This document shows, in pieces, positions 28,493 to 49,815 of a DNA stretch of 64,000 nt. The notes below the pieces were generated by a model that was given only the letters and a program-made list of their open reading frames with translations, searched no databases and was not told the DNA's origin. Made by a program: the position numbers and the translations under genes. This DNA is from an uncultured Candidatus Micrarchaeota archaeon (lineage in GTDB: Archaea; Micrarchaeota; Micrarchaeia; Anstonellales; Bilamarchaeaceae): contig CAILMQ010000032.1 of the NCBI GenBank assembly GCA_903835385.1, positions 5,976-69,975 on the forward strand, in the 5' to 3' direction. Each line of letters opens with the position of its first letter. The stretch's first letter is position 1.

Positions 28493-28777
28493 ATGGCCAT
28501 TGACCTGGTAACTGTCGTGAATCTGGTCCTCGCCATGACCATATGCGCAGTAGGCTTTTGGGAATACGGCAAGAGCAGGAACACCGTGGCATTCTACCTG
28601 GGGGCGGCCTTCGCTTTCTTTGGCATGTCCCACGTCATCACCCTCGCAGGCCTCGCAGCGCAGCTGGGGCTTTTGCTCATGGTCGTCCACATCGTCGGCT
28701 ATGTGCTGGTCCTGTTCGCGCTCCTGTACCACATGACCCCCGAAGCCGCTCCAGAGCCGCCGAAGAAGAAAAAATAG
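28493..28777 (+). CDS. small integral membrane protein
   Basis: 94 aa, three predicted TM helices and a lysine tail. Confidence 0.5.
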   Translation: MAIDLVTVVNLVLAMTICAVGFWEYGKSRNTVAFYLGAAFAFFGMSHVITLAGLAAQLGLLLMVVHIVGYVLVLFALLYHMTPEAAPEPPKKKK

Positions 28778-28848
28778 GCGGTGCGGGGGCGAACAGGGGC
28801 GAGTAAATTCTTTTTTAAATTCTTCTTTGGGAAATAGGATGACCTATT

Positions 28849-28942
28849 GGGCCTGTAGCTCAGCTTGGTAGAGGATGAAATATCCACCAAAAGCGACGGA
28901 CTCTTAATCCGTGTGTCGAGAGTTCAAATCTCTCCAGGCCCG
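28849..28942 (+). tRNA. tRNA-Lys(CTT) with a 20-nt BHB intron in the D-arm (between positions 22 and 23)
   Basis: Exons assemble to GGGCCTG TA GCTC AGCTTGGTA GAGC G ACGGA CTCTTAA TCCGT GTGTC GAGAG TTCAAAT CTCTC CAGGCCC G. Intron 28872..28891. BHB: central helix TGGT/ACCA, 5' bulge AGA, 3' bulge AAA, inner helix GGAT/ATCC. Confidence 0.85.
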
Positions 28943-28964
28943 TGAAGACTTGGGAAAGGCATTA

Positions 28965-29009
28965 GGACATGGAGCACATGGTCGGAAGACCATGAATGCT
29001 CCAGGCCCG
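28965..29009 (+). repeat. tRNA-fragment-like hairpin element, copy A
   Basis: GGACATGGAGCACATGGTCGGAAGACCATGAATGCTCCAGGCCCG followed by TTTTT. It repeats the CTCCAGGCCCG 3' end of the adjacent tRNA-Lys. Confidence 0.6.
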
Positions 29010-29103
29010 TTTTTCGATTGTCTCGAATCCCGTGTCTTCAGTTCCCGGCAGGGAACTGGAGAGCTTGCGCTCGCAAGCGCATGGTCCTGAGGTTTCTCTC
29101 AGG

Positions 29104-29149
29104 AAAAACGGGCCGAATTGCCCCGCAGGGCAATCAGAGGCCCGTTTTT
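29104..29149 (+). repeat. A-tract/GGGC-stem/T-tract hairpin (possible bidirectional terminator), family member 1
   Basis: AAAAACGGGCC GAA TTGCCC CGCA GGGCAA TCAGA GGCCCGTTTTT. Confidence 0.6.
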
Positions 29150-29181
29150 ATTTTCTTCGTTGCTTGTTTCGGTTGATAATA

Positions 29182-29424
29182 ATGATTGCCGAACTCGTCG
29201 CCCTCGTGCTCGCAGTGCTCGCCGCAGTCGTGATTTACAAGGTGGTGAAGGGAATCGTTCCGCTCATTCTGCATGCCATTGTGGCGCTCGTCGCGCTCTG
29301 GGTGCTGAACGTGTTCGGGCTCAGTGTGGCTATAAACATCTGGAGCGTGCTGATAGTCACCATAGGCGGCCTGGTTGGGCTGGCCCTGGTGGTGCTGCTC
29401 CATTTGCTTGGAATCGCGTTCTAG
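29182..29424 (+). CDS. small membrane protein (BofA-like, 2-3 TM)
   Basis: Hydrophobic 80-aa ORF starting at ATG 29182. The upstream part of track ORF 28996..29424 is structured non-coding repeat. Confidence 0.5.
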   Translation: MIAELVALVLAVLAAVVIYKVVKGIVPLILHAIVALVALWVLNVFGLSVAINIWSVLIVTIGGLVGLALVVLLHLLGIAF

Positions 29425-33031: not shown

Positions 33032-33151
33032 GAAAAGCACCGTTTCTACTGTGGTTTGGGGTGCGAAACATATTTATAAAGTTATTATGCGATATGGCAG
33101 CAACATGCTCCTGCCGAAACGGCCGGAGTGACTGAATGGAGGTACGATAAT

Positions 33152-33577
33152 ATGGCAGAAGAAAAAACCGCGGGTGCGGCAAAGGCTGCTCCGGCAAAGG
33201 CCGCCGCAGCTGCGAGCGCCGGCGATGACAACCTTATAGGTGCGCTGTGCTATGTGCCGCTGGTATTCCTGAGCATACTTGTGCCGCTTTTCATTCTCCT
33301 GACTGAGAAGAAGCAGAACAAGGCGCTCGCGTTCCACGCGTGGCAGGCACTGATTCTCACCGTAGTGGTGATAGTGGTGTTCGGCGCCCTCGGCGTGGTC
33401 AGTTTCATCCTCAGCATATTGAACGGCACGCTGGGCGCGCTCCTTAGCTGCCCGATGGCAATAGTCGGCTTCGCACTGTTCGTGTTCATGTGCTTCGTCG
33501 CATACAAGACCTACCAGGGCGAAAAGTACATGATACCAGTGGTAGGCGCGTTCGCGGAGAAGCAGGCCAGCAAGTAG
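33152..33577 (+). CDS. DUF4870-like membrane protein
   Basis: LIGALCYVPLVF...KALAFHAWQALILTVV pattern with 3-4 TM helices. Confidence 0.65.
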   Translation: MAEEKTAGAAKAAPAKAAAAASAGDDNLIGALCYVPLVFLSILVPLFILLTEKKQNKALAFHAWQALILTVVVIVVFGALGVVSFILSILNGTLGALLSCPMAIVGFALFVFMCFVAYKTYQGEKYMIPVVGAFAEKQASK

Positions 33578-33642
33578 CGGCCTGTTTTTTTCCATCTTTT
33601 TTTTCCTTTTCACAATCTTGTCTTGTTCGCAAGGTGCACGAA

Positions 33643-34062
33643 ATGGCAAATGGCAGGAAAGACGATACGGCAGCACAGCCCGGGGAGGCGCTGACGGATA
33701 ACGACAAGGCATTCTCGGCCATATCTTATATCCTGGGCATTCTCGTGGCGCTCGTGATTTACCTGGTGAAGAAGGAAAACGGGTTCGTGCGCTTCCATGC
33801 TGTGCAGTCCATTCTCGTGGACATTGTTGTTTTCGTGATAAGCATCATCGCGGTCATCCTGTTCTTCGCGATTTTCGCAATCGGAATGGTGGCGGGAGGC
33901 ATAGGCGTGCTCGTGGCTTTCCCCCTGTTCTACGTGGCAGTTCTGGCCTGGGGGCTCTTGCTGCTGGCTATCCGGCTTTTCCTGGCGTGGAAGGCATACA
34001 ATGGCGGGCGGTTCATGATTCCGCTGCTCGGCGGACTGGCGGAGAGGTTCTCCGCAACGTGA
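33643..34062 (+). CDS. DUF4870-like membrane protein (paralog of 33152..33577)
   Basis: AFSAISYILGIL...VRFHAVQSILVDIVV, same architecture as its neighbour. Confidence 0.65.
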   Translation: MANGRKDDTAAQPGEALTDNDKAFSAISYILGILVALVIYLVKKENGFVRFHAVQSILVDIVVFVISIIAVILFFAIFAIGMVAGGIGVLVAFPLFYVAVLAWGLLLLAIRLFLAWKAYNGGRFMIPLLGGLAERFSAT

Positions 34063-34095: not shown

Positions 34096-34116
34096 CGCCG
34101 TATGCATACATTATAC

Positions 34117-34369
34117 GGGCTAGAGTGGGGCCAGGGGTCCCAGCACCGCAAATCCCCTTAGGCGGCTCGAATGCCCGGGGCGTTGCCTGTTTCAGTTGCG
34201 CCTCTTTTCCTGAAGCGTAGACGTTCTGCCCTGTGTGGCGGAATGCCTCGTGAACCGGGTCAGGCCGAAAGGAGCAGCCCTAAGCGTTTCATTCCGTGCT
34301 CGCAGGACACAGAATCGAGCAGATGGACTGGAGCTCCACAGCTGTTTCAGCCGGCAAACCGGGAAGCCC
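34117..34369 (+). ncRNA. ffs: signal recognition particle (7S) RNA
   Basis: Helix-8 core GGGTCAGGCCGAAAGGAGCAGCCC with a GAAA tetraloop. Flanking helix-5 pairings: GGAATG/CATTCC, CTGTGT/ACACAG and GCTCGA/TCGAGC. The 5' GGGCT pairs with the 3' AGCCC. The exact ends are uncertain. Confidence 0.75.
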
Positions 34370-34414
34370 ATATTTCGTTAGTCTCCAGTTTTCAGTCTCG
34401 AGTTTTGCCTCAGG

Positions 34415-34552
34415 AAATATGGGCTGACGTGCACGAGCGAAGCGAGGGCACGCGAAGCCCATTTTGCATTCTTATGCCCTCATTTTTATTCTTGGAGCCT
34501 CAGGCAAAATGGGCTGACTTGGTGCCACAGCACCAAGCGGAAGCCCGTATTT
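34415..34552 (+). repeat. two tandem hairpins of the same family downstream of the SRP RNA
   Basis: ATGGGCT GAC GTGC..GCAC GCGA AGCCCAT (34419-34462) and ATGGGCT GAC TTGGTGC CACA GCACCAA GCGGA AGCCCGT (34509-34547). Each is flanked by A- and T-runs. Confidence 0.6.
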
Positions 34553-34589
34553 CGTTAGTTCCTGGCTTTCGTTTTGGAACCCGCGTTGC

Positions 34590-35843
34590 TCAGGCGCCCA
34601 GTCTCGTGATCAATTCATCGCTTCTTCTCATTCCTTCGGGAATCCTGTCAGCGAAGAATTCCTTTGTCGCCTCAAATTGCTGCTTATAGCCTTCGATGTC
34701 CCCATTGCGTATTATCGATGCCCATTCCATGACGGCGGTATGAAATTCCAGGTCGTCGCCCCTGATGCTCCTATCGCACAGAGCGGTATCCAAAGATTCC
34801 TGGAGAAGAGCGGTGTTTCTGAACAGGTACTCCGTGATGCCCAGCCGCAATCTGAATAAAGGCGTTTGGCATATGAGATGCTCGTATGGATTTATCCCGA
34901 GCTGATGCCAGGCGTCGACCATTGCCAGCAGGCTCAGGTGGGAATTGGGTTTTCTCTGCATCTCACCGCCTAATCTGAATTCGCCCATGACAGCATCGTT
35001 CAGCAACAGCGGGGATCTGCAATTCCCGAATACCGCATCGGATGCCTTGTGCAACCTCTCCGTGAACTTCGTTTTTTCTTCCTGTATCATCAGCTTGAAC
35101 AGCTCTGATTCCGATTTAGCGTATTGCTGCACCTGCCTTTTGGCAAAGGGATTCAGTATCGCAAGGCCGGAATAGACGTGCGCCTTGCCGCCGTATATCC
35201 TCAATGTCATCAATGTCTTTATGTTATCTATCCCGCCGGCATAGGCGGGATTCTCCCATGGGTAGAACCCGGCGTTCTTCCATCCTGTCCCCATGCTTTC
35301 GAATCCCAGATGCGTGACCGCCTGGGTATCCGCTGTGATCCGGTCGTGTTCCTGGTAATCGGGCATTTCTATGAGTTTCGAGCCCAGTTCTCCAAAAGTC
35401 TGCAAAGCTAGTCGATACGCCTCATCGGAGCTTCGATGCCTGATCACAACCAAGGCCTGCCCGACAGGGCTTACAGTCGGCCCGTGTAGGGAGTGGCAGG
35501 TGACTATGTTCGCATCTTTTGGCAGATAGTTGTCAAATGCCATGATTTCCGGGCTTTTTACGGATGTCTGGCCTGCGACTATCGCACCGGGTTTTGTTGA
35601 CGGCCCGTATTGCTTTACGACTTTGTCGATGTTCTCCGTTTCCACCGAATATATGACCAGATCGCTTCTTCTGGAGACTGCAACGCCGTCAGATAGAACA
35701 TCGACATCTGATTTTTGCAATTCCTGCCTTAGACGGCTTGTTTTTTCAGGCAGATCGCATCCGTTTACCGTGTAACCCCGTTTGGCGAATCGCTTCGCGT
35801 ATAATTTGCCCATGTCACCTAGGCCGATGATCCCAATCTCCAT
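34590..35843 (-). CDS. tyrA: prephenate dehydrogenase (long TYR1-like form)
   Basis: IGIIGLGDMGKLYAKRF Rossmann N-terminus and ...VTCHSLHGP. 417 aa. Visibly lower GC than its neighbours. Confidence 0.7.
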   Translation of the reverse strand: MEIGIIGLGDMGKLYAKRFAKRGYTVNGCDLPEKTSRLRQELQKSDVDVLSDGVAVSRRSDLVIYSVETENIDKVVKQYGPSTKPGAIVAGQTSVKSPEIMAFDNYLPKDANIVTCHSLHGPTVSPVGQALVVIRHRSSDEAYRLALQTFGELGSKLIEMPDYQEHDRITADTQAVTHLGFESMGTGWKNAGFYPWENPAYAGGIDNIKTLMTLRIYGGKAHVYSGLAILNPFAKRQVQQYAKSESELFKLMIQEEKTKFTERLHKASDAVFGNCRSPLLLNDAVMGEFRLGGEMQRKPNSHLSLLAMVDAWHQLGINPYEHLICQTPLFRLRLGITEYLFRNTALLQESLDTALCDRSIRGDDLEFHTAVMEWASIIRNGDIEGYKQQFEATKEFFADRIPEGMRRSDELITRLGA

Positions 35844-49466: not shown

Positions 49467-49514
49467 GGACCTGTAGCTCAGTTTGGTCGGCGATCCGACC
49501 AAATCGCTCCAGGC
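49467..49514 (+). repeat. tRNA-fragment-like hairpin element, copy B
   Basis: GGACCTGTAGCTCAGTTTGGTCGGCGATCCGACCAAATCGCTCCAGGC. Its first 15 nt copy the 5' end of the adjacent tRNA-Ile with one change. It is alignable to copy A. Confidence 0.6.
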
Positions 49515-49531
49515 ATAGAAAAGTATTCTAC

Positions 49532-49668
49532 GGGCCTGTAGCTCAGCTCGGTTAGAGCGACGGTCTTATATGGCACGTTCTAATACACGGTTATTAGGAC
49601 GAGTCTGGGCTAGCCGTAGAGGGGTCAAGACCCCGCGGAAGTCCGGAGTTCAAATCTCCGCAGGCCCA
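49532..49668 (+). tRNA. tRNA-Ile(TAT) with two BHB introns (anticodon loop 37/38 and variable loop 45/46)
   Basis: Exons: GGGCCTG TA GCTC AGCTCGGTTA GAGC G ACGGT CTTATAA GCCGT AGGTC CGGAG TTCAAAT CTCCG CAGGCCC A. Introns at 49571..49611 (41 nt) and 49620..49640 (21 nt). The BHB-rule splice sites fix the anticodon as TAT. Confidence 0.8.
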
Positions 49669-49714
49669 TTTTTCCATTAGTCTCCAGCTTCGGGTCTTGA
49701 GTCTTGCCGGCTGG

Positions 49715-49815
49715 AAAATTGGGCGAATTGCCCGACCGGAGAATCGGCGAAGCCGATTCGAGGTCCCTTGCTCGAGTCGTCGAGCATCGGCGAGGGCAAT
49801 CAGAGCCCATTTTCA
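49715..49815 (+). repeat. expanded member of the same hairpin family downstream of tRNA-Ile
   Basis: AAAATTGGGC GAA TTGCCC [about 60-nt insert with its own hairpins] GGGCAA TCAGA GCCCATTTT. The stem bases are the same as in the 29104 copy. Confidence 0.6.

Follow-up and report, generated by a model that had tools for sequence, protein, structure and literature searches.

The stretch of DNA analyzed here, a window of 64,000 nucleotides on contig CAILMQ010000032.1 of an uncultured Candidatus Micrarchaeota archaeon of tiny size and symbiotic habit, contains a signal recognition particle (SRP) RNA gene followed by two small hairpins whose outer stems copy the end of the gene. Comparable hairpin units are attached to the outer ends of tRNA genes in the window and elsewhere in the genome, and together they form a lineage-specific repeat family found so far in one Micrarchaeota family. 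These units behave as dispensable DNA repeats with a fast turnover rather than as parts of the RNAs. Our leading explanation, which we hold tentatively, is that the mini-hairpins are DNA-level repeats, of the kind represented by MITEs (miniature inverted-repeat transposable elements) or REP (repetitive extragenic palindromic) sequences, which would be seeded at the stretch of stable-RNA genes that forms the terminal helix, and whose arms would be matched to the adjacent gene via template switching. The assembly (GCA_903835385.1, referred to as G000; 1.29 Mb in 68 contigs, 89% complete, with sequencing runs from peat) includes the window as C32:5976-69975, and the flanks of all its RNA genes were listed for a census of the units.

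An initial annotation of the window had described an SRP RNA followed by two mini-hairpins, and the Rfam match to the gene and the folds of both hairpins agreed with this description (Table 1). In what follows, X designates a direct copy of the gene end and X' an inverted copy that comprises the last 5-7 nt of the gene and the first 5-7 flanking nt. In unit 1, X' (GAAATATGGGCT, 34414-34425) is followed by GAC, an inner hairpin (34429-34451), GCGA and the copy X2 (AGCCCATTTTGC, 34456-34467). Unit 2 is composed of X' (GCAAAATGGGCT), GAC, an inner hairpin (34519-34536), GCGGA and the copy X3 (AGCCCGTATTTCG, 34542-34554). Both fold as AUGGGCU / inner stem / AGCCCAU (z = -1.9 for unit 1 and -3.5 for unit 2) and, with their spacers included, extend over 34372-34467 and 34468-34554. 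The proposal that the hairpins mimic both termini of the SRP RNA held in part: the 3' arm copies the 3' end of the gene, but the 5' arm is the complement of that 3' end plus the trailer and not a copy of the 5' end of the gene. The X' of unit 1 pairs at 13/16 positions with X1 upstream versus 9/16 with X2, and the X' of unit 2 pairs at 13/16 positions with X2 upstream versus 6/16 with X3. When a fragment consisting of the SRP 3' end and unit 1 was folded, X1 and X' were paired in the predicted structure; in a read-through transcript, this pairing would compete with the SRP terminal helix. The block of about 60 nt behind the SRP RNA had been considered homologous to the one behind tRNA-Ile, and a whole-genome DNA search recovered the latter at C32:55639-55716 (75% identity, E = 8e-5) together with a further copy at C13:42322-42377 (82% identity, E = 4e-9). 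Spacer 1, the end of which reads GCCTCAGG, matches spacers located behind tRNA-Ile, tRNA-Lys(UUU), tRNA-Cys and a tRNA on contig C11 (nhmmer and whole-genome DNA search).

Table 1. Host genes, spacers and hairpin units in the window (positions are those of the window)
Feature	Position	Strand	Basis or remark
tRNA-Lys(CUU) with intron (host)	28849..28942	+	Rfam tRNA; ARAGORN with introns
Two units behind tRNA-Lys	28943..29149	+	sequence, fold, R1
SRP RNA gene (host)	34115..34371	+	Rfam RF01854, 70.9 bits
Copy X1 = AGCCCATATTTC	34365-34376	+	final SRP RNA bases and trailer
Spacer 1, ~37 nt, ..TTAGTCTCCAG..GAGTTTTGCCTCAGG	34377..34413	+	member of conserved spacer family
Hairpin unit 1	34414..34467	+	fold; covariance model R1 72 bits, E = 7e-15
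Spacer 2, diverged, end = GCCTCAGG	34468..34503	+	sequence; weak nhmmer match
Hairpin unit 2	34504..34554	+	fold z = -3.5; R1 58.6 bits
Partial third spacer TTAGTTCCTGG...GCTCAGG, without hairpin	34555..34598	+	sequence; weak nhmmer match
Mirror-image unit before tRNA-Ile	49467..49531	-	65-nt indel versus G002; weak minus-strand R1 match
tRNA-Ile(UAU) with introns (host)	49532..49668	+	Rfam tRNA; 135/137 identical to the G002 orthologue
Unit behind tRNA-Ile	49669..49814	+	sequence, fold, R1; 14 nt in place of the segment in G002

The other two hosts in the window are tRNA genes. Behind tRNA-Lys, the first unit is an atypical hairpin that closes with GCTCCAGGCCCG (to 29010), and the second consists of a long spacer, X' (29104-29114), GA, the stem-loop ATTGCCC-CGCA-GGGCAAT, CAGA and X (29139-29149). 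The unit behind tRNA-Ile is built in the same order, with a spacer, X' (49712-49724), GA, ATTGCCC and GGGCAAT enclosing a 60-nt insert with two hairpins, CAGA and X (49805-49814). As had been noted, the hairpins at 29104-29149 and 49712-49814 have GAATTGCCC...GGGCAATCAGA in common and are set apart by the internal insert of about 60 nt; the other statements of the initial annotation on the sequences of these two trailers were also correct, as judged by the sequence, the folds and the DNA search. The tRNA-Ile gene is, in addition, preceded by a mirror-image unit. On the plus strand it opens with a 15-nt copy of the tRNA 5' end, and on the minus strand it reads E'-GA-TTTGGTCGG..CCGACCAAA-CTGA-E. 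Its inner cassette, GGTCGGCGATCCGACC, recurs before tRNA-Leu on contig C50.

The census of the whole genome showed that a unit, read outward from the gene, consists of a spacer (close to 36 nt or 90 nt in length, or nearly absent), X', a hairpin cassette and X, and that one to four units are stacked per array. In each case the 3' arm corresponds to the last bases of the host gene, the discriminator and the trailer, and the 5' arm is the complement of the 3' arm. The junctions of the cassettes are asymmetric, either GA...NNGA or GC...CAA, which defines a class A (outer-GA-NUUGNCC..GGNCAAN-NNGA-outer) and a class B (outer-GC-CGUGG..CCACG-CAA-outer). Beyond the three hosts of the window, units were found behind about 12 RNA genes, among them tRNA-Lys(UUU) and tRNA-Arg (three each), tRNA-Cys, two tRNA-Ala genes (two each), tRNA-Met (at a contig end, in perfect tandem units of 134 nt), tRNA-Asn and tRNAs on contigs C11, C40 and C54, which brings the total to 30 units or more, spread over roughly half of the RNA genes. 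That the 5' arm does not copy the 5' end of the gene is seen at tRNA-Ala, where the mimic has A3-U70 and the tRNA itself has G3:U70. Since CCA is absent from every X copy, the mature tRNA was not the source, and the copies derive from DNA or from the primary sequence. Hairpin arrays run up to the very end of several contigs (C68:1-230, C16:1-100, C1:1-66 and C50:4100-4194), which means that these repeats interrupt the assembly and that the true number of copies is higher than the count. Asn-type units carrying a fragment similar to the tRNA-Asn 3' end were also observed away from any detected tRNA gene, at C26:24900-24990 and C40:52130-52190, one of them intergenic and the other apparently within a coding region; these may be relics or transposed copies.

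Two simple origins of this architecture were considered and discarded. Tandem duplication of the gene followed by deletion of its body was ruled out because unrelated hosts share spacers and cassettes and because the 5' arm is a complement and not a copy. The idea that units are layered like an onion, the inner stem ATTGCCC/GGGCAAT being a former outer stem of tRNA-Arg or tRNA-Cys, was dropped because relatives show a general inner-stem consensus, NUUGNCC/GGNCAAN. The CCTNAGG palindrome found at the spacer end was tested as a restriction-like site and was neither depleted nor enriched genome-wide.

A certain degree of similarity between hairpins and neighboring genes is expected, as many acceptor stems open with GGGC and are followed by T-tracts, and GC-rich terminator hairpins beside GGGC...GCCC acceptor stems could look alike by chance. 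Three analyses bear on this point. The own 3' hexamer of a gene recurs downstream behind RA(N) in 7/30 RNA genes versus 1.9% for the hexamers of other genes. A covariance model, R1, was built from 10 hairpins and searched against the genome, an analysis that the initial annotation had called for; it gave 15 solid matches, all of them directly behind tRNA or SRP genes, and further copies of the hairpins were found in this way. In an alignment of 30 hairpins from 9 genomes, 89.6% of the pairing cells were paired versus 66% in shuffles, and double changes were present in 16/17 pairs, and slid controls reached at most 47%. These results indicated that the similarity exceeds chance. Moreover, the arms follow unusual gene ends (AGTCCA, CCGGCA, TGGCA) and unusual trailers such as CACATTCC. 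Together with the pairing of the arms described below, the hexamer and covariation tests rule out chance likeness, to which we assign next to no probability.

The claim that copies flank the 3' ends of RNA genes agrees with the position of all 15 solid R1 matches, but the family is also present at 5' ends, where it appears in mirror image. Four units precede tRNA-Leu on contig C50, and others precede a tRNA on C40, a tRNA-Leu on C2, the tRNA-Ile of the window and a tRNA-Met of a second genome of the genus (G001, 73% complete). All open with a copy of the tRNA 5' end, and they share the junctions, spacer and inner cassettes with the 3' units only if the opposite strand is read, in the outward direction. 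Their spacer is 37 nt long with CCTCAG at its end in the outward reading. The asymmetric class B core was found on the strand of the gene in 9/9 3' units and on the opposite strand in 2/2 tRNA-Leu 5' units, and inspection by hand of the 5' units of tRNA-Ile (49467-49531), the C40 tRNA and the G001 tRNA-Met located class A only on the opposite strand. The orientation therefore tracks the end of the gene and not the direction of transcription, which is most simply a DNA-level feature.

The order of the arms was analyzed by taking the junctions as coordinates from the R1 model alignment. In 26/30 units, X' is more complementary to the copy upstream than to the one downstream, with a mean of 10.5 versus 7.2 of 16 positions, and the loop between X' and the upstream copy is constant (32-40 nt). 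The layout of the arrays is thus direct, inverted, direct. Mispairs of the G.U and A.C types are nearly equal in number (11 versus 8), a count that by itself is uninformative for telling RNA from DNA hairpins; it gives no sign of selection on an RNA strand and so agrees with a DNA-level feature.

An alternative is that the units act at the RNA level, as tRNA-like minihelix mimics in leaders and trailers that serve as punctuation or stop signs for RNase P, tRNase Z or exonucleases, or as back-up terminators. The outer stem and the discriminator copy the acceptor end, the structure is conserved with many double changes, and units occur at the same tRNA species in several genera. Many 3' units of this genome carry an A-tract and a T-tract and end in T4-T8, and the G001 SRP gene lacks a T-tract until past its second unit, so that its precursor probably includes the units. 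Against this stands the mirroring of sequence-asymmetric features at 5' ends, because of which leader RNAs would hold the reverse complement. Furthermore, recognition by an enzyme needs no mimicry of the neighbor's own sequence, SRP RNA is no known substrate of RNase P or tRNase Z, and the units, which do present an acceptor-like stem and a discriminator, have loops of 3-4 nt and no T-loop. The best partner of X' is the gene's own 3' strand, which implies competition with the acceptor stem or the SRP helix, and a genome of the same genus has no units at its tRNA loci. RNA contigs from four metatranscriptomes cover the SRP RNA only, at 34125-34352, and do not enter the units, although such contigs show presence and not absence; none was found for the tRNA-Lys trailer. 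Taking both sides together, we consider action at the RNA level unlikely, although it is a rival to be taken seriously.

Two RNA-based interpretations offered in the initial annotation can be judged on the same data. Bidirectional termination fits some of the copies; however, T-runs are missing from the G001 SRP units and from all 5' units, and a consensus terminator scan called neither SRP hairpin. The interpretation as unannotated small RNAs was unsupported, as the metatranscriptome contigs stop inside the SRP RNA and polarity follows the gene end and not transcription. At the thresholds applied (a gathering-threshold scan of the window and an E-value scan of 28700-29300), Rfam detected only tRNA and SRP RNA. 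Known RNA motifs did not account for the junctions either. A bulge-helix-bulge motif, defined as a 4-bp helix between two 3-nt bulges that lie on different strands, was not found by hand in the SRP and tRNA-Lys units or in the tRNA-Ala units of a relative (G016). Unpaired bases sit at one junction as a 2x3-4 internal loop, and there are no staggered bulges in the X1:X' or X':X2 pairing. A K-turn (C stem, 3-nt bulge, tandem sheared G.A pairs and NC stem) or a box C/D motif (with RUGAUGA and CUGA boxes in addition) was rejected as well: the bulge has 1-3 nt, mostly 2, there is no C box, class A has GA/GA and class B GC/CAA, and 5' units would give the reverse complement in RNA.

The distribution of the family was assessed by searching R1 against related genomes. 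Matches were found in 27/99 genomes of the same family, belonging to 9/23 genera, with a patchy presence even inside one genus, and no matches were found in 16 genomes of other families of the order. When non-seed matches in seven other genomes were inspected, 12/13 were located directly behind a tRNA and copied its 3' end, discriminator and trailer; the ends copied include TGTCCA, TGGCA and CCGGCA, and some units are nearly devoid of spacer. In G001 the SRP RNA is followed by two units, the arms of which match the trailer of that gene, CACATTCC. A third genome of the genus, G002, is closed and its SRP RNA is 95% identical to that of G000; hairpin units were present at 0/30 of its tRNA loci. 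The comparison with G002 revealed a clean 202-nt insertion/deletion (indel) at the tRNA-Lys locus, bounded by an AGGCCCG repeat within which the exact boundary is ambiguous. At the tRNA-Ile locus there is an indel of 65 nt at the 5' end, bounded by a 15-nt repeat, and one of about 165 nt at the 3' end. A decayed remnant of units lies behind the G002 SRP RNA. This remnant, and the fact that G001 shares the SRP units, indicate that G002 probably lost its units. No structural variants were detected in four DNA metagenomes.

Among the interpretations of the initial annotation, that of a miniature mobile element targeting the 3' ends of RNA genes came closest. It agrees with the clean presence/absence indels and with the patchy, stacked and contig-breaking character of the units, but it accounts neither for the mirrored units at 5' ends nor for locus-specific arms, which are not ordinary terminal inverted repeats, and no transposase was found. 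Measured against the usual definition of a MITE, the units have flanking direct repeats and presence/absence polymorphism at orthologous sites (202 nt at tRNA-Lys, 65 nt at tRNA-Ile); they lack fixed terminal inverted repeats, since X and X' differ per host gene and follow the gene's end. The Y1 transposase domain (PF01797) had no match in G000, G001 or G002. It was detected in 12/41 relatives, with no relation to the presence of hairpins.

The units could also be the sites at which an undescribed recombination system, either site-specific or guided, acts. Integron arrays are organized as core, cassette, inverse core, hairpin and core, and in IS608 a guide at the foot of the hairpin complements the target. 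The topology of the present arrays is the same as that of an integron array, and X', at the foot of the hairpin, is complementary to the bases immediately upstream of the point of insertion, as in the guide/target pairing of IS608; the system would be attC-like, with cassette boundaries anchored on the end of an RNA gene, or IS200/IS605-like with X' as guide and X as target. A 2.2-kb island behind tRNA-Asn (C1:39200-41460) also has the expected disposition, as it is flanked by a hairpin unit on one side and by another copy of the 3' end of tRNA-Asn (ATCCCCGGGGCG) on the other, with an imperfect X'..X hairpin closing its far end. Its two genes are an open reading frame (ORF) of 302 aa without Pfam match and one for a Fic/DOC protein of 312 aa (PF02661, E = 1e-19), and it resembles a small integrated element that lacks an integrase. 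However, no recombinase was identified, Y1 being absent from the two unit-richest genomes and uncorrelated with the units in the 41 relatives. The more than 10 different cores in one genome would need as many specificities or a re-templating of the guide. Most of the supposed cassettes are 36-nt spacers, and a scan for exact 6-nt-arm hairpins within 15 kb gave no further gene-sized cassettes beyond local arrays. On balance, a recombination system of this kind is unlikely, but it too is a rival to be taken seriously. A broader version appears to us quite improbable: the hairpins would be the recombination sites of a DNA insertion/capture system anchored on the terminal-helix sequence of stable RNAs, X' would be the guide or inverse core that pairs with the gene end, and insertion in the outward direction, at either end of the gene, would add spacers and now and then a gene cassette such as the Fic island. 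The unusually numerous tRNA introns of these archaea would be seeded from the same pool, given that motifs of the spacers are also found in T-loop introns and in insertions inside SRP RNA.

A related possibility is that the units are what ordinary mobile elements that target tRNA genes left behind after many rounds of integration and excision, the X copies being duplicated att sites and the remainder leftover element ends. The 3' ends of tRNA genes are classic att sites, casposons and integrases duplicate them (PMC5137440), direct repeats of the tRNA end are present here and the island at tRNA-Asn is real. Nevertheless, this leaves unexplained the inverted copy X', the 5' units and the SRP RNA host, as well as the constant 36-nt spacer and arms that follow each gene's own trailer. 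We regard it as very improbable.

In the mechanism that we favor, a unit would be seeded at a gene end through short terminal-helix identity, either because an insertion duplicates the terminus or because another gene end is copied with the help of microhomology. Template switching during replication between the arms (quasi-palindrome correction) would then keep X', and through it also X, matched to the adjacent terminus without selection. Template switching has been documented to create, extend and homogenize hairpin arms (PMC8794818, PMC13100816). Recombination between direct X copies would expand, shrink or delete the arrays, and effects on transcripts, for example a hairpin with a T-tract acting as back-up terminator or insulator, would be secondary.

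Several points weigh against this explanation. We infer the mechanism, and none of its steps was observed. No transposase or recombinase was identified, with the limit that an integrase was not searched for, XerA-type recombinases being universal in archaea. Spacers and inner cassettes are homologous across loci and genera, so they must move between loci, for which template switching alone is insufficient. The mechanism also leaves unexplained why units recur at the same tRNA species (tRNA-Ala, -Lys, -Met and -Ile) across several genera. Between G000 and G001, the SRP units seem to be orthologous, with a fold kept through many changes, and this conservation and the recurrence of host tRNAs could reflect selection for function. 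The evidence for mirror-image placement comes from about six 5' units, some of which are duplicates of one another. Finally, the RNase P RNA gene (C15:24184-24404), whose product also has a terminal helix, carries no units.

Some additional observations concern introns and the neighborhood of the host genes. The T-loop introns of several tRNAs are long hairpins with a left arm similar to the 36-nt spacer family (GTTTCCAG / GTCTTCAGTTTTG); spacer-like introns of this type were seen at C68:184-436 and C16:1251-1400 and at L016, L018 and L032. This suggests that spacers and introns are drawn from a common sequence pool. The SRP RNA genes of G016 (L009 ~1400-1470) and G022 (L010 ~1700-1760) contain internal insertions with the spacer-type motif GTYTCNRG, which may be introns inside SRP RNA. 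A LAGLIDADG-like ORF (..MGDGNLW..) is located at C15:23850-24100, directly downstream of the RNase P RNA gene. In the window, two adjacent paralogous genes for small membrane proteins (one of 149 aa, the other the later portion of an ORF of 190 aa) occupy 33128-34062, just upstream of the SRP RNA gene, and the partial third spacer behind the SRP units abuts the stop codon of a convergent gene (34590-35843 in the ORF list).

If the explanation by DNA repeats is correct, these Micrarchaeota would have repeats with stems written from the ends of the neighboring tRNA and SRP genes, a property undescribed for REP, MITE or integron sites in the literature searched. The units would also account for the breaking of contigs in DPANN assemblies and for the spurious partial tRNAs found there, and would offer a natural system for watching template switching build and maintain hairpins. 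In addition, there may be a link between the units and the introns, whose spread in these genomes is unexplained. If the units act on RNA instead, they would constitute a new kind of leader and trailer signal for the maturation of archaeal tRNA and SRP RNA.

Full-text literature searches returned no description of terminus-copying hairpins at archaeal RNA genes, but several known systems share some of their properties. The distal repeats of E. coli tyrT, reportedly 178-bp units that each include the tRNA-Tyr 3' end and are associated with rtT RNA, resemble the present arrays in being tandem downstream units with a direct copy of the tRNA 3' end. They differ in that they have no inverted copy or mimic hairpin and no 5' mirror units, and in being a single bacterial locus. 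Compared with attC sites and IS608, the core of the present units varies per host gene, the complementarity is longer (10-13 nt versus 3-4 nt), most of the cassettes are spacers of 36 nt, and no transposase or integrase was identified, the latter not having been searched for. The t-elements of plant mitochondria and the tRNA-like element upstream of the Haloferax 5S rRNA (PMC1920247) are also acceptor-stem-like hairpins at RNA ends that could recruit tRNA-processing enzymes. They mimic the general shape of a tRNA including the T-arm, in one transcript orientation, whereas the units described here copy their neighbor, have no T-loop and are mirrored at 5' ends. Template-switch (quasi-palindrome) mutation likewise copies adjacent sequence as its reverse complement, homogenizes or extends arms without selection and produces compensatory-looking changes in one step (PMC8794818; PMC13100816). 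It has been described for scattered single events and leaves the shared spacers and cassettes at RNA-gene ends unexplained; for this reason it is proposed here for the matching of the arms only. The closest parallels are REP sequences, the bacterial interspersed mosaic elements (BIMEs) that they form and MITE-type repeats (Correia elements, enterobacterial repetitive intergenic consensus sequences and the IS200/IS605-derived palindrome-associated transposable elements, PATEs), which are small, non-coding, palindromic and extragenic, occur in arrays with a patchy distribution and indels, and may act incidentally on transcript ends. In contrast with REP, BIME and PATE repeats, no REP-associated tyrosine transposase (RAYT) or Y1 transposase was found in the unit-richest genomes. 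Unlike all of these repeats, the units occur only where stable-RNA genes end, face outward at either side of the gene, and have arms that copy the terminus of their neighbor.

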